From the NCBI GenBank assembly GCA_036339465.1, contig JAYZAY010000064.1, forward strand, positions 1-64,000: a stretch of DNA of 64,000 nucleotides. Direction: 5' to 3'. Each line of letters starts with the position of its first letter. Positions within the stretch are counted from its first letter, which is position 1. The stretch comes from Myxococcota bacterium. Its GTDB lineage: Bacteria; Myxococcota; XYA12-FULL-58-9; JABJBS01. Positions 36,211 to 61,253 of the stretch are shown here, in pieces. Both the position numbers and the translations under genes were made by a program. The notes beneath the pieces were generated by a model. It was not told the origin of the DNA and searched no databases. It saw nothing but the letters and a program-made list of their open reading frames with translations.

Positions 36211-36540
36211 ATGAGTGACTCTGATTTAAAAACATTTAAAATTGGTGATACCCATCAACCGACGGTTGCTGCCTCTGCTTCCCATCGGGCATCACAAGCC
36301 GCAAAAGGGAAGCCAACCGTGGGCTTCCCTAGACTCGAAAAGCTATTGGAAACGGAAACGGCCGAAACCGTCGACACAAAAATGAACGCAATCTTAACCA
36401 ATTTGGGCAATTTAGAATCCCAAGCCGACAGCCCCAAAGAAAAAGCGTGCGCTAAAAGAGCGACAGCAGCAGTATCTCAAGCCCATGAAATGCTTATATT
36501 TCTTTACGAAACCAAAAGCCTGGTGACACCCGGTGGCTGA
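36211..36540 (+). CDS. Small helical protein, candidate YscE-like needle co-chaperone
   Basis: Helix-hairpin pattern RLEKLL...NAILTNL...AVSQAHEML; directly before the needle-like gene. Confidence 0.5.
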   Translation: MSDSDLKTFKIGDTHQPTVAASASHRASQAAKGKPTVGFPRLEKLLETETAETVDTKMNAILTNLGNLESQADSPKEKACAKRATAAVSQAHEMLIFLYETKSLVTPGG

Positions 36541-36652
36541 AAAAAGTCAAAGCCCCTGTATTTTTTAACCGAAAGCCTTCGGGCTTGCTAATGTCACTAC
36601 GAGCGACGAAAATTCAACAAAGCTCAAAGAACTGAAACCACGGAGTTTTGCA

Positions 36653-37132
36653 ATGACAAACATTAAGAACAATTCAATAGGCAACCAAGTAGACGTCAAC
36701 AAAAGCCGTGCTCGACAAACACAGAATGCATCAAAGAGCTTTGCTTCAGCAGTAGCCAATACAACTGCGGGGGTAGCACGCTCTGTGGGTGCCGTGGTAC
36801 CTGGAGGCTCTATCTTAACTGCTGCAGCTAGTTCCATTCAAAACTCTGTCGGTTCACCTAACGCACGAAATGTAAGCTTGGCTGGAACAACTACAACATC
36901 CTCAACCAATGACACATTTTCCGCAGTCAACGAGCTCGCTGCAAGCGGCGACTCTTCTGCCACAATGTTTAACGCTACCAAAGAGCTACAAGAACTCAAC
37001 CAGCAATTTAACCTAGAATATTTGAATCTCCAGCAAGAAATGCAGGGAGAAAACCGAAAATTCAGTGCTATTTCTAACGTCATGAAAACCAAGCATGACA
37101 CTGCCAAGGGTATGATTCAGAACGTACGATAA
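36653..37132 (+). CDS. Candidate T3SS needle/filament subunit (SctF-like)
   Basis: C-terminus YLNLQQEMQ...FSAISNVMKTKHDTAKGMIQNVR resembles PrgI/YscF C-terminal helices; Ser/Ala/Thr-rich N-terminus. Confidence 0.6.
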   Translation: MTNIKNNSIGNQVDVNKSRARQTQNASKSFASAVANTTAGVARSVGAVVPGGSILTAAASSIQNSVGSPNARNVSLAGTTTTSSTNDTFSAVNELAASGDSSATMFNATKELQELNQQFNLEYLNLQQEMQGENRKFSAISNVMKTKHDTAKGMIQNVR

Positions 37133-37158
37133 TGCCAAACAGTGTACGTCGCTCACTC

Positions 37159-37202
37159 CAAACGCCGCAGGTCGCTCATGCCACCTGCGGCGTTTGTGTT
37201 TT
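37159..37202 (+). terminator. Rho-independent terminator-like hairpin
   Basis: CAAACGCCGCAGGT-N10-ACCTGCGGCGTTTG followed by TGTTTT. Confidence 0.75.
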
Positions 37203-37282
37203 AACGGTACCTGTTTTAAAATTCTCCTGAGACCGCTAACGCATCGACCAGTGAACTGGCCCCGACGTAAGGACTAATTTAA

Positions 37283-37705
37283 ATGACAGATACGATATCG
37301 GATATAATTCAAGGAATAGTTCCCATCGAGCAAAAAGACCTAAGTCTACTTCTGGAGATAGGTTATTTCTACCTGGAGTTACAGAAGTTTAAAGAAGCGG
37401 AGGAAATTTTTAATGGAGTCGCAGCTTTGATCCCTCACAGCGAAATCCCGCACATAGCCTTGGGACATCTTTATTTTTCCCAAGGTCACTTCAACCCCGC
37501 ACTCAAAGCCAATAAAGCAGCCGTTCTGCTCAATACAGAGTCCGCGCCGGCCCACGCAGCTGTTGGAGAAGTCCTCTTCTTCCTAAAAAAACCGGACGAC
37601 GCAGTGACCGCGCTCAATAAAGCAATCCAATGTTCACCAGAAAGCCCTGCCGCAGAATTCGCTCAAGCGTTGCTTCACGCGAATGAAGTCGGCGTATTTG
37701 GTTAA
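37283..37705 (+). CDS. TPR T3SS chaperone (YscG/CdsG-like candidate)
   Basis: Three TPRs; LLLEIGY...EAEEIFNGV..LIPHSEIPHIALG. Confidence 0.75.
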   Translation: MTDTISDIIQGIVPIEQKDLSLLLEIGYFYLELQKFKEAEEIFNGVAALIPHSEIPHIALGHLYFSQGHFNPALKANKAAVLLNTESAPAHAAVGEVLFFLKKPDDAVTALNKAIQCSPESPAAEFAQALLHANEVGVFG

Positions 37706-37725
37706 TCGGTTAGAAGGAGTGAGCT

Positions 37726-38199
37726 ATGACAAAGGTTGGGGGCGGACCCAAGCCGCCGGTTCAAGTACCCATTCATGAACAAACGGGTAAAGCAGAGGAG
37801 CAAAAAGAGACAGCTAAAGGAGACGCTAAGGGGGCCCAAGTTCAGCGAGACCGATTCGAGGCATCTCGCTCTCCCCTAGCAAATCGCCTCCAAGCTCTCC
37901 AAGCACAACGGGGGACGGCCAAGCTACAATTCAGTAACGCTGAAATGGCCGAGTTGGTGAAAACTTTCGGCGCGATCCTTAAACAGAACCCACAAGCAGA
38001 CCGAAAAAAGAGAGCAAAATTGTTCGCGGAAGCATTGCTCAAGAAAAAGAAGAAATTTAAGAAATTCTTCAGTTCTGCTGCAGAACAAGATCTCGAAAAC
38101 CTCTTTGATGCCATAGCCGAGCAACTAGAGAGTTCACCTGTCTTTGCGCAGTTGGTTGACGACGTATCCGAAGAGTCCATTAAATTCGCAGGGAGTTGA
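37726..38199 (+). CDS. Hypothetical T3SS-associated protein
   Basis: AAGGAG SD; disordered N-terminus, helical C-terminus; stop 4 bp before the sigma gene. Confidence 0.7.
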   Translation: MTKVGGGPKPPVQVPIHEQTGKAEEQKETAKGDAKGAQVQRDRFEASRSPLANRLQALQAQRGTAKLQFSNAEMAELVKTFGAILKQNPQADRKKRAKLFAEALLKKKKKFKKFFSSAAEQDLENLFDAIAEQLESSPVFAQLVDDVSEESIKFAGS

Positions 38200-38203
38200 T
38201 ATC

Positions 38204-38956
38204 ATGAGTGGTTCACCCAGCTCCAATGCTCCAAGTAAAACAACCCAAGGCAAAGGGGCCAAAAAGAACATGGATTTCACCAATTCAAGGGCTGTGGTAG
38301 AGCAATACACTCCCTATGTTCGGTCAATCGCCACCAAAGCAAGCAGAAATCTTCCACCCGACATCGAACTTGATGACTTGGTCGGATATGGAATGGTCGG
38401 ACTTCTCGAAGCAGCCCAGCGATTCGATCCAGAAGCGGGTGCCAATTTCATGACATTTGCGTTCTACAGAATCAGGGGGGCCGTGTATGATGGCCTTCGT
38501 AGCATGGGTTGGATGAGCCGCACAGAATACGCCAAGGCCAGATTCGAAGAACGAGCCAACGAATATTTGGCCGCACTTGCCTTTGCCGAGGAAACAGGGG
38601 CTCAGGCTCCCGAAAATCCATTTGAAATTGCAGTGGAAGATTTGGCGGCGGCTGTTGAGGGTCTTGCTGCGGTATACCTTACCGCCATCGACGGAACGGA
38701 AGGACTCCAACTCGAAGATGATAAGAATCCCAAACCAGATGAGAAACTTGGACTTGAGCAAGCTCGATCTCTGGTTAGAAAGACAATTTCTAAGCTTGGT
38801 GGCCAAGAACGAACCCTAATGGAACTCTACTATTACAGTGAAATGAGTCTGCAAGAAGTCGGTGAAAAACTCGGACTCTCTAAAAGCTGGACAAGTCGGT
38901 TGCATAAACGAGTTATCGAAAAACTAAGACGGATATTGGATGACGAATTAGGCTAA
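38204..38956 (+). CDS. FliA/WhiG-family sigma factor
   Basis: DDLVGYGMVGLLEAAQRFDP, FAFYRIRGAVYDGLR, region 4 MSLQEVGEKLGLSKSWTSRLH; GGGAG SD. Confidence 0.92.
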   Translation: MSGSPSSNAPSKTTQGKGAKKNMDFTNSRAVVEQYTPYVRSIATKASRNLPPDIELDDLVGYGMVGLLEAAQRFDPEAGANFMTFAFYRIRGAVYDGLRSMGWMSRTEYAKARFEERANEYLAALAFAEETGAQAPENPFEIAVEDLAAAVEGLAAVYLTAIDGTEGLQLEDDKNPKPDEKLGLEQARSLVRKTISKLGGQERTLMELYYYSEMSLQEVGEKLGLSKSWTSRLHKRVIEKLRRILDDELG

Positions 38957-39082
38957 TTCTGTGACCATGATCTCGGTAAACCCATTATCACGTAAAGGGG
39001 CTATAGAAAAGCAGCCATTTTACATCCAATGTGGGTACTAATTATGAACAATGAATCTTTGATAAACGCTCGGAGGTAATCC

Positions 39083-39580
39083 ATGGACCCCGTCGGTGGT
39101 GGAATAGGCAAAGCAGCTGCGGCGCTTATGAAAGAAATGCAGCAGGTACAACAACAAGCCGAGCAAATGCAGGAAGCTCAACAAACACAGCAAGTTGACA
39201 GTGCACAATTTCAGCAAGCCATGCAAGATCAACAGGGCCCAGAGAACGTAAATAAGACCAACGCGGTACAACCCACTCCCCAAGGCTCAAGTATTCTCTC
39301 TCAAGTACACGCTTCAGGGGCCAGTCCCTCCCAAGCAATTGGGCAAACCGAAAGAGTCGAAAAGACTCAAGTTGCTCAAATGCTTGAAGGTTTAGCAGAT
39401 GGGCAGCAAGAGATGAATAACATCATGGAAAAAGCTCTATCTGGCGATAAACTATCAAGCCAAGAACTCCTCGCCATGCAAGCTAAGATTTACCGATTTA
39501 CCCAAGAAATGGAGATCACATCTAAAGTTGTCGAAAAGAGTACCAGTGGCCTCAAGCAAACCATGAACACTCAGGTTTAA
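39083..39580 (+). CDS. T3SS inner rod-like protein (SctI/HrpB2-like)
   Basis: C-terminus LSSQELLAMQ...EITSKVVEKSTSGLKQTMNTQV; directly upstream of sctJ. Confidence 0.7.
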   Translation: MDPVGGGIGKAAAALMKEMQQVQQQAEQMQEAQQTQQVDSAQFQQAMQDQQGPENVNKTNAVQPTPQGSSILSQVHASGASPSQAIGQTERVEKTQVAQMLEGLADGQQEMNNIMEKALSGDKLSSQELLAMQAKIYRFTQEMEITSKVVEKSTSGLKQTMNTQV

Positions 39581-39609
39581 TTCCCCTACTTTCTTTACGA
39601 AAGTCACCT

Positions 39610-39619
39610 CCCCCCCCCC
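39610..39619 (+). repeat. Poly-C10 tract in the sctI-sctJ intergenic region
   Basis: Ten consecutive C. Confidence 0.85.
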
Positions 39620-39704
39620 TAACTAAGTTGCTTCAACCGCTCACCGAGGATAGCCCTTCCTATAAGCGGAGAGGGTCCCGCCAGCGACTCCTAATCACAA
39701 TTGG

Positions 39705-40610
39705 ATGGGACTAAAGATAATGCGACCAAAGCGACTTAGCCAAAAGATCAAGAATCGGAATCATTACTTATCAAGACTCACCCTGCTCCTGGGCGCCATG
39801 ACATTCTCCACTGCGTGTGCGCCAGAAACCATTATTCATGACATCGGTGAACGAGAAGCAAATACGATTCTTGAGCTCCTAGCCGACCACGATATTCAAG
39901 CAAATAAACTAATGAAGAGCGATGGCCGAACAACCAAATTTGACGTCCTAGTCAATTCAGATAAAGCTATGAGCTCTATTAGACTGCTCAATCAATACGA
40001 ATTACCAAGACGTGCTGACAAAGGCTACGCTGACGTCTTTGGGGAAGGTGGCCTCATCCCTACGTCATCAGAAGAAAAAGCCAAAGAACTGGCCGCGCTC
40101 GAAGGTGAAATTCAAAAGCAACTCAAATTGGTGGATGGTATCCTCGATACCGAAGTCAATCTGGTCATCCCTGAAAACAATCCACTGCGTAACAACGAAG
40201 AGCAACAACCTACCCCCACCGCAAGTTTGACCATCCGATACCTACCGGGTAAAGGCGGAAGTAAACCCATCACGGAACAACAAGTTCAGGTGCTTGTATC
40301 TGCGGCTGTCGAAAATCTAAGTGCGGACAAAGTCTTTCCGCTCATGACCCCTGTCACCATCGGCTACAAAACAGAAGGACTAAGGGATGATCGCGATTCA
40401 GTAAAAGGCTCATGGATAGGGCGACTCGATAAAAAGACAGTGAACATTTTAACCATCCTAATCACCGTATTATTCGTCGTACTCGCAAGTCTACTTGTCG
40501 TTTCCCAATTACGACTAAATAACGTCCGCGGTCGCTTGCTCCGACTCCAAAACGAAATCGCCAATGCACGGAAAAGACAGTCCGGGGACAGCCTGCCCCC
40601 AGCCAGCTGA
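39705..40610 (+). CDS. sctJ: T3SS inner-membrane ring lipoprotein
   Basis: Lipobox FSTAC; EREANTI; LIPTSSEEK; PTASL; C-terminal TM. Confidence 0.88.
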   Translation: MGLKIMRPKRLSQKIKNRNHYLSRLTLLLGAMTFSTACAPETIIHDIGEREANTILELLADHDIQANKLMKSDGRTTKFDVLVNSDKAMSSIRLLNQYELPRRADKGYADVFGEGGLIPTSSEEKAKELAALEGEIQKQLKLVDGILDTEVNLVIPENNPLRNNEEQQPTPTASLTIRYLPGKGGSKPITEQQVQVLVSAAVENLSADKVFPLMTPVTIGYKTEGLRDDRDSVKGSWIGRLDKKTVNILTILITVLFVVLASLLVVSQLRLNNVRGRLLRLQNEIANARKRQSGDSLPPAS

Positions 40611-40633
40611 CAGATTGCTAAAGGTTAAGTACG

Positions 40634-41677
40634 GTGCACCCGTTTTTCCATCCACTAACTCCCTATGAAACCATGCAACTCCTGACCTCTTTGGCTGTTG
40701 CTGGTCCCGAGGCTGTAGAACTTTTACGTTTTATCCCCGAGGAACAAAGAGAACGAATCAACGAAAAAGCAACGTCACTGCTCAAACTTGAAGGTGAAAA
40801 ACGGATCCCGTTTGTCGTCTCGCAGCTCAAAGAACTCTTAAGTGGAGACAATATCGGCTTCGACAAAATCGAGCCAAGCTGGATTTTGGATGAATTACTG
40901 GAAGAAGAACCTATTTCTATCGGAATTCTCCTTATAACCCTGCCACCAAACACCACCAAAATCTGTATCAAGATGCTCCCAGATACAATTCGTGAACAAC
41001 TTCCACCAAGATCTGCCGTCATCGAAACCCCGCCCCTGGTTCAAAAAGCAGCACTTCGACAATTCGAATCGCGCTTTACCCCAATGCCTTGTTTTGGCGC
41101 TTTGAGAGAGTTTCAGTTCCAAGACCTCCTCCGATTAGAAAGTTCCGATTGGCATCAACTTTTAAACGTTATTGGTAAAGTCGAGGTCGGTCAGGCATTC
41201 GTGTCAGTAGGTAAAATGGCTTTGGTTGATTTCTGCCGACAGCTTTCAGCCACAGACGCAGAAAATCTGCTCGCAACGGTCAAACGACACCCAGAAATGA
41301 CCCCTGAAGAAATCAAAACCGGACAAAGATTTCTCTCCCGAATTGCTGGCTCCTTTAAGGCAATGGATGAACTCTTTTCGTGTGCGAGTTTGTGGCGTCT
41401 TGCCAAAGCCACCTATGGAGAACCGAAACGATTCACCCAACAAATAGCCCTGCGAATACCGAGAAAGTGGGGAATCCAATACCTAGACTATCTCGAGAAA
41501 ATACCAGAAATGGATGACCTAAACCCCCAAGATTTTTTAAACTATCAGGATTCAATCCTCATTGAGCTCATTCATCTAATCCATAACCAAGCCATCAATT
41601 TTCAAATGGGAAAAGCAAATATTGTGATGAATACGCCCGATCGCTACAAGAATGCCAGTACTGCGAATGACAATTAA
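40634..41677 (+). CDS. SctK-position protein with FliG-like middle and C-terminal motifs
   Basis: EEEPISIGILLITLPP resembles FliG EHPQTIALILSYL; FQFQDLLRL resembles FTFEDL; lies between sctJ and sctL. Confidence 0.6.
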   Translation: MHPFFHPLTPYETMQLLTSLAVAGPEAVELLRFIPEEQRERINEKATSLLKLEGEKRIPFVVSQLKELLSGDNIGFDKIEPSWILDELLEEEPISIGILLITLPPNTTKICIKMLPDTIREQLPPRSAVIETPPLVQKAALRQFESRFTPMPCFGALREFQFQDLLRLESSDWHQLLNVIGKVEVGQAFVSVGKMALVDFCRQLSATDAENLLATVKRHPEMTPEEIKTGQRFLSRIAGSFKAMDELFSCASLWRLAKATYGEPKRFTQQIALRIPRKWGIQYLDYLEKIPEMDDLNPQDFLNYQDSILIELIHLIHNQAINFQMGKANIVMNTPDRYKNASTANDN

Positions 41678-41722
41678 CATTGCCCCCTTTTAACCTAACC
41701 CCGGCCGTGGCAAAATCAACCT

Positions 41723-42385
41723 ATGGGAAAAGTAATTAAAAAAGGAATCGGAGACGACACAGGGTTTCAGGACCTCGTTTCCACCGATGAACCAACACGG
41801 CGAGCACCAATCATCGAGCGCGCTACAGTCGAAGCAAAAGATGAAGCTTCCGAAATTATAACGAAAGCCAAAAGTGAAGCCGAACAAATCATTCAAGCGG
41901 CAGAAGAAAAAGCAAAACACCTTGAGGCAGAAGCCCATGAACGCGGTTTTTCTGAAGGCAAAGAAGAAGGGGCATCCCAGTTACTCGAAACCGTAACCAA
42001 AGCCAGTAAGAGGATCCAGCAGACCGAAGACGCTCTTTCCAAAAACATTAAGGATCTGGCGATTGGCATAGCCAAAAAGATCTTGGGTCAAGAGCTACAA
42101 TCAAATCCTGATGCTGTGGTGGCACTTGTTAAACAAGCCCTCACCGACAAGGCGAGACAACGTAAAGAAATCAGCTTACGAATAAATCCAGAGGATTTGG
42201 AACACATCCGATCCAGTAGAAGCGAACTTCTTGAAGTATTAAGCCGTTGCCGCGAAATCTCAATTAGGGAGGATCCAGACGTAGCGCGGTTTGGAGTCAT
42301 TATAGAAACAGAAGCGGGTACCATTGATGCCCAATTAGAAACTCAGCTAGAGGCAATTCAAAATGTTCTCAGAGCGATGCCCTAA
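41723..42385 (+). CDS. sctL: T3SS stator (SctL/FliH)
   Basis: AxxxA repeats, ERGFSEGKEEG, LRINPED, IIETEAGTIDA. Confidence 0.9.
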   Translation: MGKVIKKGIGDDTGFQDLVSTDEPTRRAPIIERATVEAKDEASEIITKAKSEAEQIIQAAEEKAKHLEAEAHERGFSEGKEEGASQLLETVTKASKRIQQTEDALSKNIKDLAIGIAKKILGQELQSNPDAVVALVKQALTDKARQRKEISLRINPEDLEHIRSSRSELLEVLSRCREISIREDPDVARFGVIIETEAGTIDAQLETQLEAIQNVLRAMP

Positions 42386-42400
42386 AGCCGAGAACAAAAA

Positions 42401-43741
42401 ATGAGTGACGGAGCACCTATCATCGACATTAATCAATATCTCCAAGCGATCGAACAAGCCGAAACGGTTTCTGTTCGGGGCCGAGTTCTAGAGGTTACTG
42501 GACTGGTTATTAAGGCCCTGATCCCCGGAGTCCGAATTGGTGAAATGTGTTACGTCGATACGGGAATCGGCAATAGAATCGTCTGTGAAGTCGTCGGATT
42601 TCAAGACGAAAATGTGATGCTCATGCCCCTTGGGGAAGCACACGGTATTGGCCCAGACAGCGAAGTTTTAGCTACAGGAAGACCTTTCTCAGTTCGATGT
42701 GGTTGGGGCCTCCTAGGACGCGTTCTAGATGGCTTAGGACGACCTATTGATGGTGGCCCTGCCCTAGATGACCTTCCCGATCTCGTGGATTGGCCGGTGG
42801 AACGTGAAGCCCCAGACCCCATGAAACGAATGCGAATTACCGAGAGTATCGCCATGGGAGTTAGAGCCATCGACGGACTTTTAACCGTCGGTCTAGGCCA
42901 AAGAGTTGGGCTTTTTGCCGGTTCCGGGGTTGGCAAATCGACTCTCATGGGCCAGATCGCCAGAAATACTGAAGCTGAAGTTGTTGTCGTCTGTCTCATT
43001 GGTGAGCGGGGTCGTGAAGTAAGAGACTTTATAGAAGAATCCCTAGGCGATGAGGGTCTCCGAAAGGCGGTTCTAATTGTGGCGACCTCAAATACCCCCT
43101 CCTTGGTTCGCTTAAAGAGCGCTTTTATTTCCACCGCAATTGCCGAATGGTTTAGGGATCAGGGAAAGAAAGTTCTCTTTATGATGGACAGCTCAACCCG
43201 ATTTGCACGTGCTCAACGCGAAATAGGTCTAGCCATAGGAGAGCCACCCGCCCGGCAAGGCTATCCACCGAGCGTATTTTTTCAGATCCCTAGGCTCATG
43301 GAACGCACCGGTAACAATGAGACGGGTTCAATCACGGCCCTCTATACCATTTTGGTTCAAGGCGGAGATATGGAGGAACCTATCGCTGATGAAGTGCGCG
43401 GTATCCTAGACGGCCATATTATCCTTAATCGAGAGCTGGGCGCACGAAACCACTGGCCCGCTATCGATATACTGCCTTCTCTTTCCAGAGTCATGAATGG
43501 AGTTGCCGGTGACCAACACAAAGCGGCGGCCGCCAAGTTACGAGAAGTACTAGCAACCTACGAAAAACAGCGGGATCTTATTCTCCTCGGAGCATACCAA
43601 TACGGTACAGACACAAAAACAGATTATGCCATCGACAAAATCGAAGAAGTCGAAGCATTCCTTAGACAAGGCATGCTTGAATGCGACGATTTTGAAACAA
43701 CCGTTCATAAGCTAGCCAGCATGTTCACAGACGTAATGTAG
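42401..43741 (+). CDS. sctN: T3SS ATPase (SctN/FliI)
   Basis: GSGVGKS, IGERGREV, GEPPARQGYPPS, GSITALYT, LDGHI. Confidence 0.96.
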   Translation: MSDGAPIIDINQYLQAIEQAETVSVRGRVLEVTGLVIKALIPGVRIGEMCYVDTGIGNRIVCEVVGFQDENVMLMPLGEAHGIGPDSEVLATGRPFSVRCGWGLLGRVLDGLGRPIDGGPALDDLPDLVDWPVEREAPDPMKRMRITESIAMGVRAIDGLLTVGLGQRVGLFAGSGVGKSTLMGQIARNTEAEVVVVCLIGERGREVRDFIEESLGDEGLRKAVLIVATSNTPSLVRLKSAFISTAIAEWFRDQGKKVLFMMDSSTRFARAQREIGLAIGEPPARQGYPPSVFFQIPRLMERTGNNETGSITALYTILVQGGDMEEPIADEVRGILDGHIILNRELGARNHWPAIDILPSLSRVMNGVAGDQHKAAAAKLREVLATYEKQRDLILLGAYQYGTDTKTDYAIDKIEEVEAFLRQGMLECDDFETTVHKLASMFTDVM

Positions 43742-43760
43742 GGTGAATTGAGTTAACTCC

Positions 43761-44255
43761 ATGGCCAAAAAACAAGAATATCGACTACAAGCGCTATTGG
43801 AAATCCGGAAACGCACCAAAGAGGACAAAGAACAAGAACTCGGTCAGTGCCTACAACGTTTGGAGACAGAAAAAGACAGCCTCGCCGGAATGAAGAAAAA
43901 ATTAGAGGAAATGCTCCAAGACCGCGAACGAAGAGCAAAAGAATACGCCGATAAGCAGATGCGTGGCGAGATGAGCGCCCAAGCAATGACCGGAGCCCAA
44001 TCTTACCTGAAAAGACTGAAAGAGAGTGAGGCCATCCAAGAAGAACTTATTCGAGATCAAGAATCGGTGATTCGCCAAAGGCAAGATGAAGTTCAAGCAG
44101 CAAGAGAAATACTCTTAGAAGCAACCCAAGAACTAAAAAGCCTAGAGAAACACAAGGAAAAATGGGAAAAAAAGGTCAAGAAAGAAAGACAAGCCAAGGA
44201 AGAACAAGAGCAAGAACAATTGGCACAGGCTATCTTTTTAAATAGGGAGAAATAA
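43761..44255 (+). CDS. sctO: T3SS stalk (SctO/FliJ-like)
   Basis: YRLQALLEIR start, long coiled coil, directly after the ATPase. Confidence 0.8.
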   Translation: MAKKQEYRLQALLEIRKRTKEDKEQELGQCLQRLETEKDSLAGMKKKLEEMLQDRERRAKEYADKQMRGEMSAQAMTGAQSYLKRLKESEAIQEELIRDQESVIRQRQDEVQAAREILLEATQELKSLEKHKEKWEKKVKKERQAKEEQEQEQLAQAIFLNREK

Positions 44256-44320
44256 GGAGAAATAAGGAGAAATAAGGAGAAATAAGGAGAAATAAGGAGA
44301 AATAAGGAGAAATAAGGAAG
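44241..44320 (+). repeat. 10-bp tandem repeat AATAAGGAGA (6 perfect plus 2 imperfect copies)
   Basis: Perfect copies 44251-44310; flanking variants AATAGGGAGA and AATAAGGAAG. Confidence 0.95.
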
Positions 44321-44406
44321 AAAACAAATCTTCTAACCCGTGACCCCACCAAACGATAATGTGATTAAGGCTGCCTGCCAAGGTAAGTACAAGGAGCCCA
44401 CCTATT

Positions 44407-45249
44407 ATGAGCGACCGAGTCCAAGACCGCCGTGAAGCACAAATAACAGAGCAAAAACGCCTGGAAAAGGAAACATCGAAAAAAGACACACAGAAGTCTT
44501 CAGACCGAAAATTCTCACAGACAATGAAAAATGCTGCCTCCGAAACCACAACCAGATCAAACCAACCTCCAAGTACAAATCGCCCTAAAGGGGCAGCCAG
44601 CAAGAATAGCAGCGCGCAAGCGCTCGCAGCGCGCAAGGGAATTGCTTCGCAAAAATTCAGTGACACTCTCTTTGGAACAGGAGAGAAAAACCTAAATTAC
44701 TCCAAAGACTTAAGTAGCAACAGGGCCGAGCAAAAAGATCAAGAAAGACTCGAATTCAACGATTCGAAGCAACAAGACTCCGTTAAGGAGCTGAACGAGA
44801 ATGACCCACTGGCCGCAATAAGTGAGAGGCAAAGTCAATCAGGACAGGGGGGCAGTTTCGGGCAACCCCACGACGAGGGCCACCAACCTGAGACAGGTAG
44901 CCTAGACACAATCGATAACATAGGAAATCCGTCTGGCACCAAAAACGTGAAGCAAAGTCAGGGCGCTGGCCAAGCAGGTCAAATCCCACCCGCTATCCTT
45001 GAAAAACTCGTCAACCAAGTAATGGCCGGTGTGGATGAAATAGGCCAACCCCAATTCATCATCGAACTTAACCAAGAAACTTTGCAGGGTGCAAGAATCG
45101 AGATCAAACGGGCTGAAGACGGCATCGAGATAATATTCACGAGTCCTCACAAAGATATCCAAAACCTGATTAAATCAAATGAAAATCGACTACATCGAGC
45201 ATTTCACCACCGCGGGCTCAACCTTAATAAAGTCTCTGTGAGTAGCTAA
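44407..45249 (+). CDS. Ruler protein (SctP/FliK-like)
   Basis: Disordered polar N-terminus; C-terminal FliK_C-like FIIELNQETLQGARIEI...LHRAFHHRGLNL; follows sctO. Confidence 0.75.
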   Translation: MSDRVQDRREAQITEQKRLEKETSKKDTQKSSDRKFSQTMKNAASETTTRSNQPPSTNRPKGAASKNSSAQALAARKGIASQKFSDTLFGTGEKNLNYSKDLSSNRAEQKDQERLEFNDSKQQDSVKELNENDPLAAISERQSQSGQGGSFGQPHDEGHQPETGSLDTIDNIGNPSGTKNVKQSQGAGQAGQIPPAILEKLVNQVMAGVDEIGQPQFIIELNQETLQGARIEIKRAEDGIEIIFTSPHKDIQNLIKSNENRLHRAFHHRGLNLNKVSVSS

Positions 45250-45389
45250 TCACTCCACTTCTCATCCTCTATCTACCATTCACTAAACATCTCAATTTGC
45301 CCCCGAGCTCTTCAATGATATAAGGCTTGGCGTTGGACAGAGTGGGCTGATGCCCATGATAATTTTCAGACGAAAGAAATGGACAAAAC

Positions 45390-46649
45390 ATGGATTCGGT
45401 TAGAGCCTACCAATTCCATAATCTCCCCAAATACAATCGCCTTGAAGCGGGATTACTCGAAACATCTAGCGTGTTTCTTTCTAATAATCTTTTTGGACCA
45501 AGCCTCCTCCAAGCAATCCAAAGCAAGCTGGGTGAACTTGTCCGAACCTCCGTCCAACTTACAAACTCCCCTCCAACCCTACTTAAAGGCACCGAAGTCA
45601 GCCAGTTACTACCGGAACAAGGCTGCTTCATGCATTTACAGTGCAACCCTACGACTGAGCGGATCCTAGTGGACATTGATGCCGGTTTGGCACTGGGGTG
45701 GATCGATGCAATGTTCGGTGCCCAAGTCAAAATAACCCCTGTACAACGACCACTTAACGAAATCGAAAGAGGAGCATTCTCGTACATCATTCTAAATGTT
45801 CTAGCTGAAATTCATTCCGGTTGGTCGCACGGACCGCAATTGTCCCTGAGCTTAATGGAGACGTTCAGTTCTCGAAAAAACGCCATGACCACGTTAGACC
45901 TAAACGGAAACCATTTCCACCTAGGAATCACCATCGCTTTTGCCAAAAGCCTTGGCTATATTCGGCTATTTGTGCCCACAAGCTTGATGTCGGAACTTGC
46001 AACTTGGGCCTTACTGGATCAGGTCTCTCATGATTCACTCAGCTTTCGAAGAAAACGAGCTGCGATGCTTCATGATCTAGATTGTAAAGCGCGCTGTGAA
46101 ATTGCTCGGATTGGCCTAAGTATTGAGGAGCTAAAAAACTTGGAACGTGGGGATATTATTATCCCCGAAGACCATGGCATTAGTCTTGGTCCTAACGGAC
46201 CATCCGGAGACCTGCAAATTAGACTGGGGCGAGGTCAAAACGGCTACCTCCAGACCCAATTAATTCCAGATTCCGGACAATTAAAATGTGCCATTCAATC
46301 GATCATTATACATGAACAACCCAATGAGGTTCCCATGGACGAAGACCAAATATTAAACGAAACAAACGGTGAAATGGTGGAAAACCCTGCCCACAACGAC
46401 AATCTAGAGCAAACCGAGGGACTTCTTAATGATATCCAATCTCCCGTAGTCGTTGAGCTAGGCCGACTCAATTTGAATGCGGGTCAGGTGATTCGCCTCA
46501 AGGAAGGACAAATTCTTCGCCTCCCTCGAGCCGCCACTGATCCGGTCGATCTCGTCGTCAATGGTCGCGTCTTCGCCCGGGGGCAACTTGTGGAAGTCGA
46601 GGGAGAGCTGGGTGTTCGAATCCTTCAGCTCGCTGGCTCTCAATCCTAA
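45390..46649 (+). CDS. sctQ: T3SS sorting-platform/C-ring protein (SctQ, FliM/FliN-like)
   Basis: RPLNEIERG; two SPOA domains (LERGDII; VVVELGR...VDLVVNG...GELGVRI). Confidence 0.9.
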   Translation: MDSVRAYQFHNLPKYNRLEAGLLETSSVFLSNNLFGPSLLQAIQSKLGELVRTSVQLTNSPPTLLKGTEVSQLLPEQGCFMHLQCNPTTERILVDIDAGLALGWIDAMFGAQVKITPVQRPLNEIERGAFSYIILNVLAEIHSGWSHGPQLSLSLMETFSSRKNAMTTLDLNGNHFHLGITIAFAKSLGYIRLFVPTSLMSELATWALLDQVSHDSLSFRRKRAAMLHDLDCKARCEIARIGLSIEELKNLERGDIIIPEDHGISLGPNGPSGDLQIRLGRGQNGYLQTQLIPDSGQLKCAIQSIIIHEQPNEVPMDEDQILNETNGEMVENPAHNDNLEQTEGLLNDIQSPVVVELGRLNLNAGQVIRLKEGQILRLPRAATDPVDLVVNGRVFARGQLVEVEGELGVRILQLAGSQS

Positions 46650-46667
46650 ATACCCCAGGAACCATTC

Positions 46668-47264
46668 ATGAAAACATTGGTGCTTGCCCTAGGGCTCATC
46701 ATGGGAACGCTGGCAGGGCCTGCTTCCTCTACTGAAGCAGTGAAGTCTCCTAAAGTCCTCTCTAAGGGCGAAAAGGCCACATCACCAAATATTGCCCCTA
46801 AGGCACCAAGTGGAAAACCAGACCAGTCACCTGCTCCAGCACCGAGCCCACCCCCAAGTTCTTACGACATATCCAAAGAAAATGCCGGACAGGTCTCTAA
46901 AGCCAATGAAGAAACTGATAATGATTTTGGTACCGCTCTTTTGAAGATGATTATTTCCCTTGGGGCGGTCCTGGCTTTGCTCATCATCATCGGCAGGGTT
47001 TTTCGGGGGAAATTAAAGTACTTTGGCTTCCCCGGCCAAACAAACGACATGAAATTGTTGACTCGCTTACCACTGGATAGCAAACACGTCCTTTTCGTGG
47101 TTGAAGTGGGTTCCAAGAACAAGTTACTTCTTGGCGGCGGTAACGGAAGCCTTTCTTTATTGAGAGAGTTCTCTTCAGAAGAAACCGACAGGTTGGCTTC
47201 CTCAGAGCCCGTTCAGGCAAACATCGAAACGGGATCACTACATCCTCGTGTAAAGGAAGCATAG
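46668..47264 (+). CDS. FliO-like export-gate assembly protein
   Basis: TM LLKMIISLGAVLALLII, then MKLLTRLPLDSKHVLFVVEVG...LLLG...LSLL; sits before sctR. Confidence 0.78.
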   Translation: MKTLVLALGLIMGTLAGPASSTEAVKSPKVLSKGEKATSPNIAPKAPSGKPDQSPAPAPSPPPSSYDISKENAGQVSKANEETDNDFGTALLKMIISLGAVLALLIIIGRVFRGKLKYFGFPGQTNDMKLLTRLPLDSKHVLFVVEVGSKNKLLLGGGNGSLSLLREFSSEETDRLASSEPVQANIETGSLHPRVKEA

Positions 47265-47270
47265 GCTATT

Positions 47271-48065
47271 ATGAAACGACTCTGGAACACGATGAACTGG
47301 GCAATAGCCTTGACAATGCTGCACTGGATGGACGCTGCACCCGCCTTGGCTGTGAAAAAGGGGGCTGACGCCCTCGGCTCAAATAGCCTTGCGAATCGAC
47401 CCTTAATTCTTCTAACCGCCCTAGCCGGCCTCGCTCTCGTACCATTTGTTCTAATAATGGTCACTTCGTTCGTAAAAATTGCGGTGGTGCTCTCCATCGT
47501 GAGACAGGCCGTGGGAACTCAGCAAATCCCTCCAACGCAAGTCATTACCGGGTTGGGAATCGTTCTTACCGTCTACATTATGATGCCAGTGGGACTGGAA
47601 GTCTATCACAACGCCCAGGAGAGAATGCTTCAGGAATCGCCCAAGGGCGAAAGTATGAAAATGAGCGACCTTACGGTGCAACAAGCTCTAGACCTCGCCA
47701 AGGAGGCAGAAGGCCCAATGAAAGGTTTTCTGGTAAAACATGCCCATTTGAAAGATCGGGACATGTTCTACAAACTCGCTTGGAGAATGAGAAAACCGCG
47801 AGATAGAGCAACGCTTTCCGACCAAGATTGGGCCATCATTATTCCTGCCTTCGTCATCAGTGAACTCAAGGAAGCCTTTCAAATTGGGTTCATTCTATTC
47901 GTCCCGTTCTTGGTGGTCGACATGGTCGTCGCCAACATACTTATGGCCCTGGGTATGCAGATGCTCTCGCCAACAACGATATCCCTCCCATTCAAAATCC
48001 TCTTATTCGTAATGGTCGATGGATGGTACCTAATAACCAAGGGCCTTGTGATAGGATATCAGTGA
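47271..48065 (+). CDS. sctR: Export gate SctR/FliP
   Basis: MVTSFVKIAVVL, QQIPP, PAFVISELKEAFQIG, ISLPFKILLF. Confidence 0.96.
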   Translation: MKRLWNTMNWAIALTMLHWMDAAPALAVKKGADALGSNSLANRPLILLTALAGLALVPFVLIMVTSFVKIAVVLSIVRQAVGTQQIPPTQVITGLGIVLTVYIMMPVGLEVYHNAQERMLQESPKGESMKMSDLTVQQALDLAKEAEGPMKGFLVKHAHLKDRDMFYKLAWRMRKPRDRATLSDQDWAIIIPAFVISELKEAFQIGFILFVPFLVVDMVVANILMALGMQMLSPTTISLPFKILLFVMVDGWYLITKGLVIGYQ

Positions 48066-48072
48066 GGAACAT

Positions 48073-48351
48073 ATGGACCAGGAAGTCATAGAGTTTATCA
48101 TTCGAATTACCAACGAAGCCCTATTGATGATTATCGTGGTTTGCGGACCGCCCATTCTTCTTAGTATGATCGTGGGGCTCTTAATTTCACTCTTTCAAGC
48201 GGTTACCCAACTTCAAGAACAGACCCTCACCTTCGTCCCTAAGATGATCGTTATCTTCGGGGTTCTCGCTGCTCTGGGACCTTGGCTTGGGGGAACACTT
48301 TTGACCTTTGCGCAAAAGTGCTTCTCCGAATTCCCAAAATACTTATTTTGA
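48073..48351 (+). CDS. sctS: Export gate SctS/FliQ
   Basis: FQAVTQLQEQTLTFVPK. Confidence 0.96.
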   Translation: MDQEVIEFIIRITNEALLMIIVVCGPPILLSMIVGLLISLFQAVTQLQEQTLTFVPKMIVIFGVLAALGPWLGGTLLTFAQKCFSEFPKYLF

Positions 48352-48367
48352 TACTACGACGAAGCGC

Positions 48368-49198
48368 ATGGAAGACTTTCTAATAAAAGCCAGAGAACTC
48401 CTAAGTTACACCACGGAGCTTATGACCTTCGCTTTGTTGATAGGTCGTACCATGCCAATGATCGTTCTAACCCCCTTTCTCGCTGGCAAGATCGCTCCCA
48501 CCGAACTCAAGATGGGCTTGGGAATCTCCCTAAGCCTACTTATTTGGCCCGTGGCTACCGCAGGTATGACAGGGCAACTCGTTTACGCTCCGGGCCCCTT
48601 TCTCTTACTGATGCTGAAAGAAACCTTCATCGGTTTCGCCATAGGATTTGTCAATGCACACATCTTTTATGCCATGGAAATGTCCGGTCGTATCATTGAC
48701 ACTGTACGGGGGGTTTCCATGTCCGAGGTCCAAGTTCCCCATTCTCAACAGCGTGCAACCCTAACCGGGAGTCTCTACTATCAATTACTCTTAATCGTAT
48801 TTTTTGCGGCCGGGGGTCACCATGTGTTTTTCAATGCATACTTTGATTCGTATTTAACAATTCCTATCAACGAAGGAATTGCCACCGGACTGGGCCTCAC
48901 CGCACTCACCGACTTCATCGCCAAATTGACTGGGGATATACTTACCATCGCCGTCAGATTGGCAGCACCCATTATCGCAGCCACATTAATTACGGACATC
49001 GTTTTCGGGATTCTAAACCGCGTTGCCCCGCAACTTAACGCATATTTCATGTCTATGCCCGTAAAGGCTCTCGGGGGCGTGATCGTCATATTCATTGCAT
49101 TCTCGGCTGTGCTTGCAAGCTTCAATGAGTTTACAATATGGGGCTCCGAAGCAATGAGAGATATAATCGCATATTTCTCAAAAACCATAGGCATGTAA
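48368..49198 (+). CDS. sctT: Export gate SctT/FliR
   Basis: KETFIG, GRIIDTVRG, LNRVAPQLN. Confidence 0.93.
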   Translation: MEDFLIKARELLSYTTELMTFALLIGRTMPMIVLTPFLAGKIAPTELKMGLGISLSLLIWPVATAGMTGQLVYAPGPFLLLMLKETFIGFAIGFVNAHIFYAMEMSGRIIDTVRGVSMSEVQVPHSQQRATLTGSLYYQLLLIVFFAAGGHHVFFNAYFDSYLTIPINEGIATGLGLTALTDFIAKLTGDILTIAVRLAAPIIAATLITDIVFGILNRVAPQLNAYFMSMPVKALGGVIVIFIAFSAVLASFNEFTIWGSEAMRDIIAYFSKTIGM

Positions 49199-50314
49199 AT
49201 GTCAGACGGCGGTACAGGCGAAAAAACGGAAGAGCCAACCCCGGAGAGGCTTAGAAAACTCCGAGAAGACGGGAATGTATCCAAAAGTCAGGACGTCACT
49301 TCGGCCGTTTCGTTCTTAGTGGTCTTTTGTGTTCTAGCGGGCTCTTTTGGTTTCATCGCTGAGGAAATCCGTGAGCTGATTGATATAGCATTGATTGGGT
49401 TTACCTCGCAGGAAGCCCCCGGAGTTCTTGCCAATCGACTCTTGATGCAGGGAATGATCACCCTTGGGAAATGCTGCGCCCCTGTGCTAGCCGCTGCATT
49501 TATCTTGGGTATTTCCATGAACTTGGCGCAGGTAGGCTTTCTCTTCACTCTGAAGCCCATCACACCAGACATCAAAAAAATTAACCCAATCCAGGGCTTC
49601 AAGAACTTAGTGAATATGAAGAAGCTCGTGGAACTCCTTAAAACAATTATAAAATTTACCGCAATCAGTATCATTTCGTACTTCGCCCTGAATGACGCAA
49701 TGCGTGACGTCATTTTAACTATCCGAAGTGACCTCACTATTGGTATGTTGGTTACCGGCGAAATTATCTGGGACTTTTGTATCAGAATTGGCGCCGTATT
49801 CGTGGTAATTGCGTTGGCAGACGCACTTTACCAAAAAAAGAGGTATATTAAAGATAATAGGATGTCGAAATATGACATCAAACAAGAATATAAACAGTCG
49901 GAAGGTGACCCCCAGCTTAAAGCCGAGAGGAAACAGCTGCACCGAGAAATGGCCAACGGCTCCGGTCAAAAGGGAGCTGTAAAAAAGGCGGACGTCGTCG
50001 TGAGAAACCCAGATCACATAGCTGTAGCCATCAAGTACAATAAAGAAACAGACGACGCTGCCCCAACCGTCGTCGCTAAGGGTGAGCGTATTTGGGCGGA
50101 GAAAATCCTCGAAGAAGCAAGGCACTACGGGGTTCCAATTGTTCGAAACGTGCCTTTGGCCCAAGCACTTAATAAAGTAGACGTCGGAAACGAAATCCCC
50201 GAAGAACTCTACGATGCGGTAGCTGAAGTGTTGAATTTTGTTTACACCCTTGCAGAAGAGCAACAAAATAAGGGTAAAAAGAAACTCCCGAGAGGTAAGA
50301 GAAATGGCCAATAA
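49199..50314 (+). CDS. sctU: Switch protein SctU/FlhB
   Basis: EKTEEPTP, KQSEGDP, NPDHIAVA, VRNVPLAQAL. Confidence 0.95.
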   Translation: MSDGGTGEKTEEPTPERLRKLREDGNVSKSQDVTSAVSFLVVFCVLAGSFGFIAEEIRELIDIALIGFTSQEAPGVLANRLLMQGMITLGKCCAPVLAAAFILGISMNLAQVGFLFTLKPITPDIKKINPIQGFKNLVNMKKLVELLKTIIKFTAISIISYFALNDAMRDVILTIRSDLTIGMLVTGEIIWDFCIRIGAVFVVIALADALYQKKRYIKDNRMSKYDIKQEYKQSEGDPQLKAERKQLHREMANGSGQKGAVKKADVVVRNPDHIAVAIKYNKETDDAAPTVVAKGERIWAEKILEEARHYGVPIVRNVPLAQALNKVDVGNEIPEELYDAVAEVLNFVYTLAEEQQNKGKKKLPRGKRNGQ

Positions 50315-50771
50315 TATTAGTAGCTTTAAAGCGTTCACTCAAACTCCGGCGAATATTAGCGAACACGGTGCCACCATCGAAGAGCTAAAGTCGCAGGGAA
50401 CTCCCGACCCCAATCCGCTCGCCAGCCCCATGGCTACCTCAGCAGCAGCGGACGTGGGCTTGGCCATGAAACCGCGAATAGAAACCCAAAGAGATCCCAA
50501 CGAACCAATGAGGGTCAATCATTTCAACGGGCCAAGTTACACCCACATGGTGAGTCGAGACGCAGTCGCAAAATTGGCGAACAATGCACTATTAAACGGT
50601 TTGGGTGAAGCACTTGCGAACCCAGAACTCCAAATGAATCTATCCAGCAACGCTAGGAACCAACTTCAAAGCCTACTGAGAAAAGTAGGGGCGATGGCCC
50701 ATGACGTACAGGGGCTAAACAAGCAAGTAGAGCAAATCTACGCCCGTTTCGTCAGCCACCAACAAGTATAA
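50304..50771 (+). CDS. Hypothetical T3SS protein (SctX-like candidate)
   Basis: ATG 50304 after GAGGT, overlaps the sctU stop; disordered N-terminus, helical C-terminus; precedes a TPR chaperone. Confidence 0.55.
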   Translation: MANNISSFKAFTQTPANISEHGATIEELKSQGTPDPNPLASPMATSAAADVGLAMKPRIETQRDPNEPMRVNHFNGPSYTHMVSRDAVAKLANNALLNGLGEALANPELQMNLSSNARNQLQSLLRKVGAMAHDVQGLNKQVEQIYARFVSHQQV

Positions 50772-50827
50772 ACACCCAACACACTCCGCCCCACCTACAA
50801 ACTCCCACTTTTCTGAAGACCAGATTT

Positions 50828-51331
50828 ATGATAGGCTCCCCTGCCATGTCGACAAATAATTCACCAGAAAAAGCGCTGACAGTAGCTGAGGAACGGATCA
50901 AGGAACTCGCTGAAGAGTGGGGTTTGGGAAAAGTAAAACTTAAGGATATTGTGGGGCTCTCTCCTGATGAACTCTACGCAATATCGGCCCAAGGCTATCA
51001 CTTTTTTCTCCAGGGCAAATCAGAACGCGCTCAAGTCATTTTTGAGGGACTGGCCGCGCTGGATCCAACAAATGCGTATTATCACCGAGCGCTTGGGGCG
51101 GTCTACTGGAAACAAAAAGACCCCACTAAAGCCCTAAAGCAGTTTGGTTATGCCATTCGTATCGCCCCAAAAGATGCCTCATCCTATGTTAATAGGGCTG
51201 AAGTATTCGTCGCCACCAAACAATTTGCCGAAGCCAAAGCCGATCTAACCAAAGTATTGGCCTTGGTAACCCCCAGCCAAGAAGCTATTCAACAAAAAGC
51301 AAAAGCTATATTACAAATGATAACGGCATGA
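50828..51331 (+). CDS. SycD/LcrH- or SctY-like TPR chaperone
   Basis: LKDIVGLSPDELYAI...GYHFFLQGK...IFEGLAALDP; three TPRs. Confidence 0.8.
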   Translation: MIGSPAMSTNNSPEKALTVAEERIKELAEEWGLGKVKLKDIVGLSPDELYAISAQGYHFFLQGKSERAQVIFEGLAALDPTNAYYHRALGAVYWKQKDPTKALKQFGYAIRIAPKDASSYVNRAEVFVATKQFAEAKADLTKVLALVTPSQEAIQQKAKAILQMITA

Positions 51332-60815: not shown

Positions 60816-61253
60816 TTGGCAGCTAAGAAAAAGAAACCAGCAGCAAAGAAACCAGCAGCAAAGAAACCTGCAGCAAAGAAACCTGCAGCAAAGAAACCTG
60901 CTGCAAAGAAACCAGCAGCAAAGAAACCTGCAGCAAAGAAACCTGCTGCTAAGAAAAAGGTAGCGGCGAAGAAGCCTGCTGCCAAGAAAAAGGTAGCGGC
61001 GAAGCAGCCTGCTAAGAAAGCAGCAGCTAACCGAGCACCGACTTTGACCAAGAAAAACTTCAAGTGGGATGAGGGACTGACTGGCAAATCTAAGTCACGT
61101 AAGACTCCATTTGATACCATGGATCAAGTGGAGGCAAAGCATATCAAGTCTGTGCTTGATGCTTACGGCGGAGATATTCAAAGAACTGGGCTTGCTCTTG
61201 GAATTGCCCGGTCCACTGTCTACCGAAAAATGAAGCGTTATAAGCTTCGCTAG
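60816..61253 (+). CDS. Histone H1-like (KKPAA)n protein fused to a Fis-type HTH
   Basis: TTG start after AGGGAG; 8 tandem KKPAA plus variants; C-terminal TMDQVEAKHI..VL...GGDIQRTGLALGIARSTVYRKMKRY. Confidence 0.88.
   Translation: MAAKKKKPAAKKPAAKKPAAKKPAAKKPAAKKPAAKKPAAKKPAAKKKVAAKKPAAKKKVAAKQPAKKAAANRAPTLTKKNFKWDEGLTGKSKSRKTPFDTMDQVEAKHIKSVLDAYGGDIQRTGLALGIARSTVYRKMKRYKLR
60831..60950 (+). repeat. 15-bp coding tandem repeat x8 (KKPAA)
   Basis: AAGAAACC(A/T)GC(A/T)GC(A/T) units differing only at synonymous sites. Confidence 0.93.

Follow-up and report, generated by a model that had tools for sequence, protein, structure and literature searches.

Gene content and order of the locus

This study concerns a 64,000-nt stretch of Myxococcota bacterium contig JAYZAY010000064.1 (hereafter the window), in which a cluster of 20 genes at positions 36211–51331 codes for a secretion system of type III (T3SS). 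The source genome (G000; 4.17 Mb, 92.8% complete) comes from an uncultured lineage and falls in an order represented by 22 genomes, within the phylum that also holds the Myxococcaceae. All 20 genes run in the same direction (plus strand) between fmt and the gene of a tetratricopeptide repeat (TPR) membrane protein, the GC content of the cluster equals that of its contig, and no cluster gene contains an internal stop. Pfam and NCBIfam models labelled sctI, J, L, N, O, P, Q, fliO, R, S, T and U and two TPR chaperones. We find a genuine, intact cluster that is not flagellar; it is the orthologue of the "long" T3SS* locus of Myxococcus xanthus, a system described in papers as "needle-less", and its second gene, termed u2, probably encodes a protein of the SctF/HrpA needle family. 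The features of the cluster are as follows (aa, amino acids).

36211..36540, plus strand: u1, 109 aa, helical; likely a SctE-type (YscE/PscE) needle co-chaperone, a weak and mostly positional assignment
36653..37132, plus strand: u2, 159 aa; likely SctF/HrpA-type needle or pilus subunit, orthologue MXAN_2434
37283..37705, plus strand: TPR protein, 140 aa; likely SctG-type needle chaperone, with M. xanthus Q1D9L8 in its orthologue cluster
37726..38199, plus strand: u3, 157 aa; a conserved, helical protein in the yscH slot (position and sequence conserved, 15 aligned rows)
38144..38956, plus strand: FliA/WhiG-family sigma factor (TIGR02479, E 5e-47, below cut-off)
39083..39580, plus strand: SctI inner rod (Pfam PF17001, E 6e-4; hhalign against SctI references, 94%)
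39705..40610, plus strand: SctJ lipoprotein ring, 301 aa (TIGR02544, E 8e-35; lipobox Cys38; C-terminal hydrophobic helix)
40634..41677, plus strand: SctK-position protein, a recognisable full-length FliG homologue with no Pfam or NCBIfam match
41723..44255, plus strand: SctL stator, SctN ATPase and SctO stalk (Pfam/NCBIfam)
44407..47264, plus strand: SctP/FliK ruler, SctQ (FliM-middle plus FliN domains) and FliO
47271..50314, plus strand: export gate SctR, SctS, SctT and SctU (Pfam/NCBIfam; SctR and SctU also by tree)
50238..50771, plus strand: u4, about 155–177 aa, at the yscX position ahead of a TPR chaperone (position conserved)
50828..51331, plus strand: SycD/LcrH- or SctY-like TPR chaperone (TIGR02552, 91.9 bits, cut-off 104.8; hhalign against SctY references, 96%)

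A first-pass annotation, made from the sequence alone, had read the run sctI-J-K-L-N-O-P-Q-fliO-R-S-T-U, a short lipoprotein SctJ, TPR chaperones (the genes at 37283 and 50828) and the lack of rod, hook, flagellin and mot genes inside the cluster, all of which were recovered here; it left the genes at 36211 and 36653 uninterpreted and overlooked the FliA gene. Its comparison with flagellar gene order holds, but that order is not solely flagellar: the injectisome loci of Aeromonas (asc) and Nitratidesulfovibrio run E-F-G-(H)-I-J-K-L and N-O-P-Q-R-S-T-U, and the cluster shares this arrangement, together with an X-Y-like order, with Ysc-family and Desulfovibrio injectisomes. Where Ysc injectisomes differ is that FliG-, FliM-, FliO- and FliA-like parts are kept here.

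The SctJ of the cluster (301 aa) is shorter than the FliF of the same genome (527 aa, contig C18), and the family profile of the sctK slot, from a query set without flagellar loci, matched three FliG proteins with hhalign at 97.2% (E 4e-11, 235 columns). SctN scored 602 bits with TIGR02546 (cut-off 605) and 592 bits with the FliI clade 2 model (cut-off 630), SctR passed TIGR01102 and failed the FliP model, and SctU has the NPDH cleavage loop. The sctV gene lies outside the window, on contig C59. The FliA gene occupies an equal position in the long locus of G115, a complete Myxococcaceae genome, and is also found beside the Pyrinomonadaceae system described below; it is likely the dedicated regulator of the cluster. 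For u3 there was no family match in Pfam or NCBIfam, or by hhalign against reference families. An identification of u4 as SctX was tried and found no profile support (hhalign against two SctX references, probability 0.07%).

A candidate needle subunit

The u2 protein consists of a disordered, Ser/Ala/Asn-rich N-terminal region of 85–100 residues followed by a conserved C-terminus; among 60 homologues in the protein collection the N-terminus is variable and the last 50 residues are near-invariant. The u2 profile found matches in 168 of the phylum's 201 genomes, a count that takes in G186, a genome flagged as unpublished, and some weak matches, with 17/17 in the order and 59/64 in the family of G115. 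The alignment (A1) holds a few Nif11-fused rows; these sequences (P0019, P0046 and P0049; 132–134 aa) combine a Nif11-like N-terminus with the C-terminal helix of u2. By exact look-up, MXAN_2434 of M. xanthus DK1622 shares a 90% cluster with the G115 copy, and it is the first gene of T3SS* and the u2 orthologue.

For comparison with known needles we used an SctF profile whose 17 needle subunits came from other bacteria: 10 were annotated on plasmids, and 7 belong to a set of 12 Desulfovibrio-type matches. Run as a hidden Markov model against the 4131 open reading frames of G000, it put sctI at the top (E 3e-5) and u2 next (E 0.035). Aligned profile to profile, the u2 family matched SctF at 71% (hhalign; E 4e-5, score 28.9, 44 columns) in register to the last residue, compared with control scores of at most 13.3 for 60 column shuffles, 12.7 for the reversed profile and 12.8 for SctI references; against each half of the SctF reference set u2 still scored 23.2 and 22.4. 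In the same needle comparison MXAN_2434 reached E 9e-4 at 7000 sequences. An Acidobacteria homologue of u2 matched the HrpA model (E 6e-7, 29.8 bits, below the curated cut-off of 34), a point of likeness to Hrp pili, and the G115 homologue matched TIGR02105 (E 0.02). One of the Atlas neighbour clusters of u2, at rank 11 with a score of 0.92 and 194 shared features, has PF09392 on 11% of its members. Among 62 u2 members, weak library matches to the HrpA pilin (4/62) and HrpF (2/62) were also recorded. Compared with Ysc needle subunits, u2 is twice as long and has the disordered N-terminus, which is probably the reason why profile searches missed it.

The structural model of u2 is a single 58-residue helix after a short helix (predicted local distance difference test, pLDDT, 58). 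Searches of PDB sequences with u2, single or as a profile, returned no needle; the fold search found only coiled coils (best Z 6.5) and was uninformative. Neither the u2 profile nor that of the tip-like family described below matched the flagellar axial proteins of the genome.

Candidate needle chaperones, predicted complex and synteny

The two genes flanking u2 are predicted to encode the chaperones of a needle subunit. The u1 family (31–33 rows) aligned with five YscE-family references at a probability of 10% (hhalign; E 0.003, score 22); of the 12 families tried none scored higher, the runner-up reaching 15.5. The TPR protein at 37283 matched YscG references at 87%, a match that is not specific because YscY (SctY) references reached 95%; PDB sequence searches with it returned generic TPRs only. 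In the accessible text of PMC13466201, where Myxococcus is not mentioned, class III chaperones hold the C-terminal helix of the subunit in a TPR groove. A complex of the TPR protein, u1 and u2 was predicted with a score of 0.90 (best of three controls, 0.02). This passes a mark that 116 of 157 solved complexes attain, as do 2 of 215 mismatched pairs; with own alignments and three chains, these counts are only approximate here. Contacts agreed by at least 81% between runs, with partner pLDDT of at least 71. In the predicted complex, u2 residues 139–159 are held in the TPR protein, a binding mode common to Ysc injectisomes, and u1 makes confident partner contact by two residues only.

Gene order gave a further line of evidence. 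In 33 of 43 u2-family genes the TPR gene comes next, with u1 upstream in 27 of these (the yscE-F-G pattern), whereas five are followed by sctI (the prgI-J-K pattern); of the remaining five, four have just u1 on the upstream side and one has sctJ on the downstream side. Three rows outside 100–260 aa were left out of this count, and the loci are biased to the best matches. Two independent gene orders, E-F-G and F-I-J, both set u2 in the needle slot. Profile, synteny and predicted complex agree on a likely needle identity, and u2 would then polymerise.

Several observations speak against this identification. No u2-family member reached a Pfam or NCBIfam needle cut-off (PF09392 in 4/62, best E 0.044), unrelated families matched more u2 members than needle families did, and the PxxP hairpin is absent from its canonical place in the model (pLDDT 58). 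The SctF profile matches the sctI family about equally (59%, with SctI at 94%), so the distinction between F and I is partly positional. TPR grooves accept many helices, and the predicted complex may have passed owing to its likeness to solved YscE-F-G structures. The missing hairpin and the scores below threshold, together with a TPR partner closer to SctY than to YscG references, would fit a system that is truly needle-less, in which u2 is a chaperoned substrate or regulator (SctX-like or a secreted anti-activator) and its terminal helix serves only as an export or chaperone-binding signal. We regard this as improbable: u2 scored 12.8 against SctX references, which is shuffle level, while its match to SctF is in register and both gene orders give it the needle slot.

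Relationship to the Myxococcus T3SS*

Abby and Rocha described long and short myxobacterial loci, both said to be without secretin and SctF (PMC3459982), and G115 carries both. The G115 long locus has the same order as the window cluster, u1-u2-TPR-u3-fliA-I-J-K-L-N-O-P-Q-fliO-R-S-T-U, with sctV at its end. Because of this order and the grouping in the trees, the window locus is assigned to the T3SS* type; a short-locus identity was ruled out by gene order and trees.

Trees were built from 25–35 sequences under LG+G4, without a mixture model or Chlamydia sequences, and the branching order near the root is therefore not settled. In the SctV tree G000 and the G115 long copy group together (100/99), joined next by Acidobacteriota (98/97) and then by seven canonical injectisomes (98/96); short loci branch first and FlhA is separate (100/99). 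The SctU tree supports the long clade (98/94), as does the SctN tree (98/94), in which the FliI of G000 lies elsewhere; SctN alone does not separate flagellar from non-flagellar sequences (Margulisbacteria FliI sequences sit in an open fork). SctR places the window on the non-flagellar side (100/99) and does not by itself resolve the long clade. The first-pass annotation had called the system intact, myxobacterial-type, non-flagellar and early-branching and had pointed to SctN/R/S/T/U phylogeny; gene content and the trees run for SctN, SctR, SctU and SctV, which put the window with the non-flagellar or long side, bear this out.

With T3SS* (MXAN_2434-2464) the window system shares gene order, clade, FliO, LcrH-type chaperones and the lack of a cognate secretin. 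The two differ in that sctV (C59), the gene of a "SctD" with two FHA domains and a transmembrane segment (C61:53578) and a second LcrH gene (C30) are scattered in G000, a genome that has a flagellum and in which no Tad/Kil was found. The short Myxococcus T3SS(2) (MXAN_5643-5654) also has a u2 homologue, directly 5' of sctI-sctJ; it lacks u1, the TPR gene and fliA, and forms a separate, earlier-branching SctV clade. According to PMC10196010, citing Thiery 2022, it is not needed for prey killing.

Related systems were seen outside this group. Pyrinomonadaceae (Acidobacteriota) loci L097, L098 and L106 carry a related T3SS, secretin-less-looking from the loci alone, with fliA, a DUF1521-like gene, LcrH, a divergent E-F-G triad, an FHA-FHA-TM gene, sctV-J-K-L-N, sctU, Q, fliO, R and S; in the SctV tree it is the sister of the long myxobacterial clade. 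G037 (2.0 Mb; family f16, genome sizes 0.3–2.5 Mb) has a scattered long-type T3SS (L172, L224), with SctN and SctV in the long clade.

The separate flagellum of the genome

G000 also encodes a flagellum, with flgB, flgC, fliE-K, flgD, flgE, motA and motB on C18, flgA, H, I, J, K and L on C100 and flagellins on C11 and C16. This set has its own FliF, FliG, FliH, FliI, FliJ and FliK and is not linked to the gate of the cluster; a contaminant origin of the flagellar contigs was unsupported by GC, tetranucleotide distance and relatives. No second fliP, flhB or flhA was found in G000, which gave one FliP match and one FHIPEP match only. That single gate set, and the FliG-, FliM-, FliO- and FliA-like genes in the cluster, would fit a cluster serving as the export gate of the genome's own flagellum. 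This is very improbable. C18 stops at motB and C100 stops at flgA; between these points G018 has, by position and partial matches, fliL-M-N-O-P-Q-R-flhB-flhA-flhF-flhG-fliA-flgF-flgG; two FliP matches occur in 5/5 same-family genomes (partial in G003) and at least two FHIPEP matches in 4/5, so that an assembly gap is the simple reading of the absent second gate. The sole FHIPEP gene of G000 (C59:3664-5811) passes the SctV model TIGR01399 and fails FlhA, it has the same chromosomal location in G001 and G018, and the trees part the two sets. Flagellin matches are absent from 6 of the 22 genomes of the order, and the four of these examined (G006, G009, G012 and G017) retain the cluster. The genome thus has a flagellum elsewhere, yet its T3SS core proteins group with non-flagellar systems, and the non-flagellar reading of the first-pass annotation stands.

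A polymorphic tip-like family and other axial candidates

Two larger proteins of G000, encoded at C1:68052 (519 aa, with a DUF1521 domain and GDPH motif) and C3:24776 (591 aa), have in common a helix motif at the N-terminus and a helix at the C-terminus, and their profile matched the u2 family at 94% and SctF at 36%. Members of this family were found in 22/22 genomes of the order, with 2–22 matches each, lengths from 175 to about 1400 aa and very variable middles; outside the order there were 0/19 with a single query and, weakly, 3/184 with a profile. We know of no multi-copy family with large inserted domains in HrpA or EspA/SseB systems. The Atlas neighbours of the family include clusters with EspA (12%), LcrV (12%) and chlamydial CT620/621 domains, a lead only towards EspA/SseB filaments. 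Bordetella Bsp22 is a further look-alike. Searches against PDB sequences returned nothing and the tip model (pLDDT 47) had no Foldseek match at E 0.001, leaving the fold searches uninformative. The match of only 36% to SctF and the lack of any EspA or LcrV match in Pfam or NCBIfam tell against an axial role, and we consider the case for a tip or filament role evenly poised.

In Myxococcaceae the counterpart of these large proteins appears to be different. The G115 long locus has two identical 74-aa genes with the same terminal helix (L164:15252-15476 and 17667-17891), G029 has at least two copies of a 73-aa gene with that helix (L042:1346-2044), and the 74-aa protein is present twice in M. xanthus, whereas G000 is without 73–74-aa genes. 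These duplicated SctF-like proteins are candidates for the major pilin in Myxococcaceae.

In several relatives an operon consists of LcrH, a 235-aa protein, X, a tip-family member (280–306 aa), a 760–800-aa protein and LcrH. In G000, orphan genes for 227-aa and 767-aa proteins stand with an LcrH that passes TIGR02552 (C30:56448-59982, L233); across the order these genes recur as an operon together with a tip-family gene, and the two proteins, which have no family match, are candidate T3SS substrates.

Expression and function of the M. xanthus orthologue

T3SS* is required for M. xanthus prey lysis (PMC10433427, PMC10849154, PMC12075869, PMC12428579), and papers of 2023–2025 ask how a needle-less T3SS* lyses prey. 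In the data of PMC11804543, MXAN_2434 is well transcribed and is modestly up-regulated with Bacillus subtilis prey (log2 fold change 0.82, adjusted P 0.002) and with Caulobacter crescentus prey (0.52, adjusted P 0.018). A UniProt column there labels it "Type III secretion protein", an automatic label that ties MXAN_2434 to the system and not to the needle. Small shares were present in three marine runs; in the one RNA run that was mapped, scattered 151-base pieces at depth 2–10 do not show transcription of the cluster because the housekeeping gene fmt was covered too.

The system itself is known, and FliO in such systems has already been published (bioRxiv 2025.05.06.652439). The literature searched did not name this needle, although subscription papers and preprint supplements may mention MXAN_2434; nor did that literature turn out to describe the needle module, the presence of the system in a flagellated Kil-free order, the related Acidobacteriota system or the polymorphic tip family.

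Other features of the window

Directly 3' of the cluster (51465-53474) lies the gene of a 669-aa TPR protein with one membrane helix, which also adjoins the cluster in G001 and G012 and not in most other loci examined. A 10-base purine-rich unit is repeated in four tandem copies in the gap between sctO and sctP (~44277-44320). A minus-strand frame of AAGFF repeats (~60570-61120) is the antisense of a plus-strand Lys/Ala-rich histone-like repeat. A promoter scan of the window gave chance level (20 vs 18.5), and no common upstream motif was seen by eye.

Proposed mode of action

Because the locus has a likely needle subunit and two predicted chaperones, the machine probably builds a filament. 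In the explanation that we favour, and consider probable though by no means assured, it would build a needle or pilus of chaperoned u2 with cargo-bearing tips for contact-dependent delivery. FliA would turn the cluster genes on, and the gate (SctR-S-T-U with the SctV of C59), seated on the SctJ ring and a FliG/FliM-N-like C-ring, would export SctI and then u2. The latter would stack onto the SctI rod by its SctF-like C-terminal helix, its disordered N-terminus pointing outward; in HrpA pili too the N-terminus is outside, and these are long pili with variable N-termini. SctP would set the switch, after which the larger proteins whose terminal helix is related (C1:68052, C3:24776) may extend or cap the filament and display their variable middle domains, one of them with GDPH autocleavage (DUF1521), and LcrH-type chaperones would escort later substrates. 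The most probable use would be contact-dependent delivery of lytic cargo to neighbouring cells, without a Kil/Tad pilus. For the filament reaching the surface at all, we lean only slightly in favour.

Several parts of a canonical injectisome were not found, and this explanation includes no route across the outer membrane. In line with the first-pass annotation, which described myxobacterial T3SSs as lacking a cognate secretin, no SctC was found, and the sole secretin of the 92.8% complete G000 assembly is PilQ in a pilM-Q operon. Relatives have 2–6 secretin matches, and the extra one examined in three of them is GspD of a type II secretion system operon that is absent from the G000 assembly. 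The "SctD" (34% to the G115 gene) ends in a terminal membrane helix and has no periplasmic domain. No hydrophobic translocon gene was seen beside LcrH genes in a hydropathy scan of 17 loci, and no SctW was recognised, in either case with no genome-wide family search; Ysc injectisomes differ from the present system in all four parts. In addition, no filament is reported for T3SS* in the literature examined, and with Escherichia coli prey MXAN_2434 is not among the differentially expressed genes in the data of PMC11804543. A 353-aa orphan with an Ala/Gly-rich hydrophobic stretch (C73:88607-89668, L234) was weighed as a translocator candidate; it has no family match and no homologue in the loci examined.

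The lack of a cognate secretin would also fit a reading in which u2, as a member of the needle family, forms only a short periplasmic conduit that borrows an outer-membrane channel, PilQ or GspD here and the Kil secretin in Myxococcus, with no surface filament. Abby and Rocha note that SctF can reach the periplasm without a secretin (PMC3459982), and in M. xanthus predation the Kil/Tad pilus is needed to recruit T3SS* (PMC12075869). However, the Tad marker RcpC was found in 0/6 genomes of family f1, which retains the system (9/22 in the order), and CpaF and TadB/C had no match in G000. The ruler protein is retained, and multi-copy large proteins with the same terminal helix and variable middles fit surface display better. 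On balance we regard a purely periplasmic conduit as unlikely. Because Tad/Kil was not found in G000 or its family, the model for M. xanthus, with Kil tips taking the place of the needle, is inapplicable in its present form. The contact-dependent predation suggested by the first-pass annotation is weakened by the need for Kil/Tad in Myxococcus and its missing marker here.

A surface filament of u2 might also serve adhesion or interaction with eukaryotic hosts (algae, protists) in place of bacterial lysis, a reading that differs in target only. Consistent with it, no Kil/Tad was found in the family, chlamydial T3SS proteins are among the clusters that lie closest to the tip family in the Atlas, and DUF1521, which undergoes calcium-dependent autocleavage at GDPH in T3SS proteins of Bradyrhizobium and Vibrio, is known from T3SS proteins acting on eukaryotes (PMC6506597). 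Conversely, the orthologous M. xanthus locus is needed for bacterial lysis (PMC10433427, PMC12075869), the M. xanthus-type locus also has a DUF1521 gene, and no translocon was seen. We hold this reading to be a respectable but minority one, and delivery of lytic cargo to bacteria the better-supported use of the filament.

Significance

Since 2012 the myxobacterial T3SS has been a model step from flagellum to injectisome, described with SctF lost. The published "needle-less" description appears to be wrong for both T3SS* and the G000 system, and the needle candidate would strike one assumed loss from the evolutionary scheme; the likely needle subunit and its chaperones, missed by the first-pass annotation, change what its "evolutionary intermediate" is. 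With candidate MXAN_2434 (and MXAN_2435 as chaperone) in a tractable organism, the question of needle-less lysis becomes testable, and in this Kil-free flagellated lineage the machine is retained without the pilus thought to replace the needle. A wider proposal, possible but somewhat doubtful when taken whole, is that the earliest-branching non-flagellar T3SSs kept their needle as a secretin-free surface filament of the MXAN_2434 family in Myxococcota and some Acidobacteriota, to which this order adds polymorphic tips with interchangeable, partly self-cleaving cargo. If so, the living intermediate between flagellum and injectisome would be a secretin-free antibacterial injectisome, and the conduit of M. 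xanthus lysis would be MXAN_2434 or its 74-aa paralogues, not Kil tips alone.

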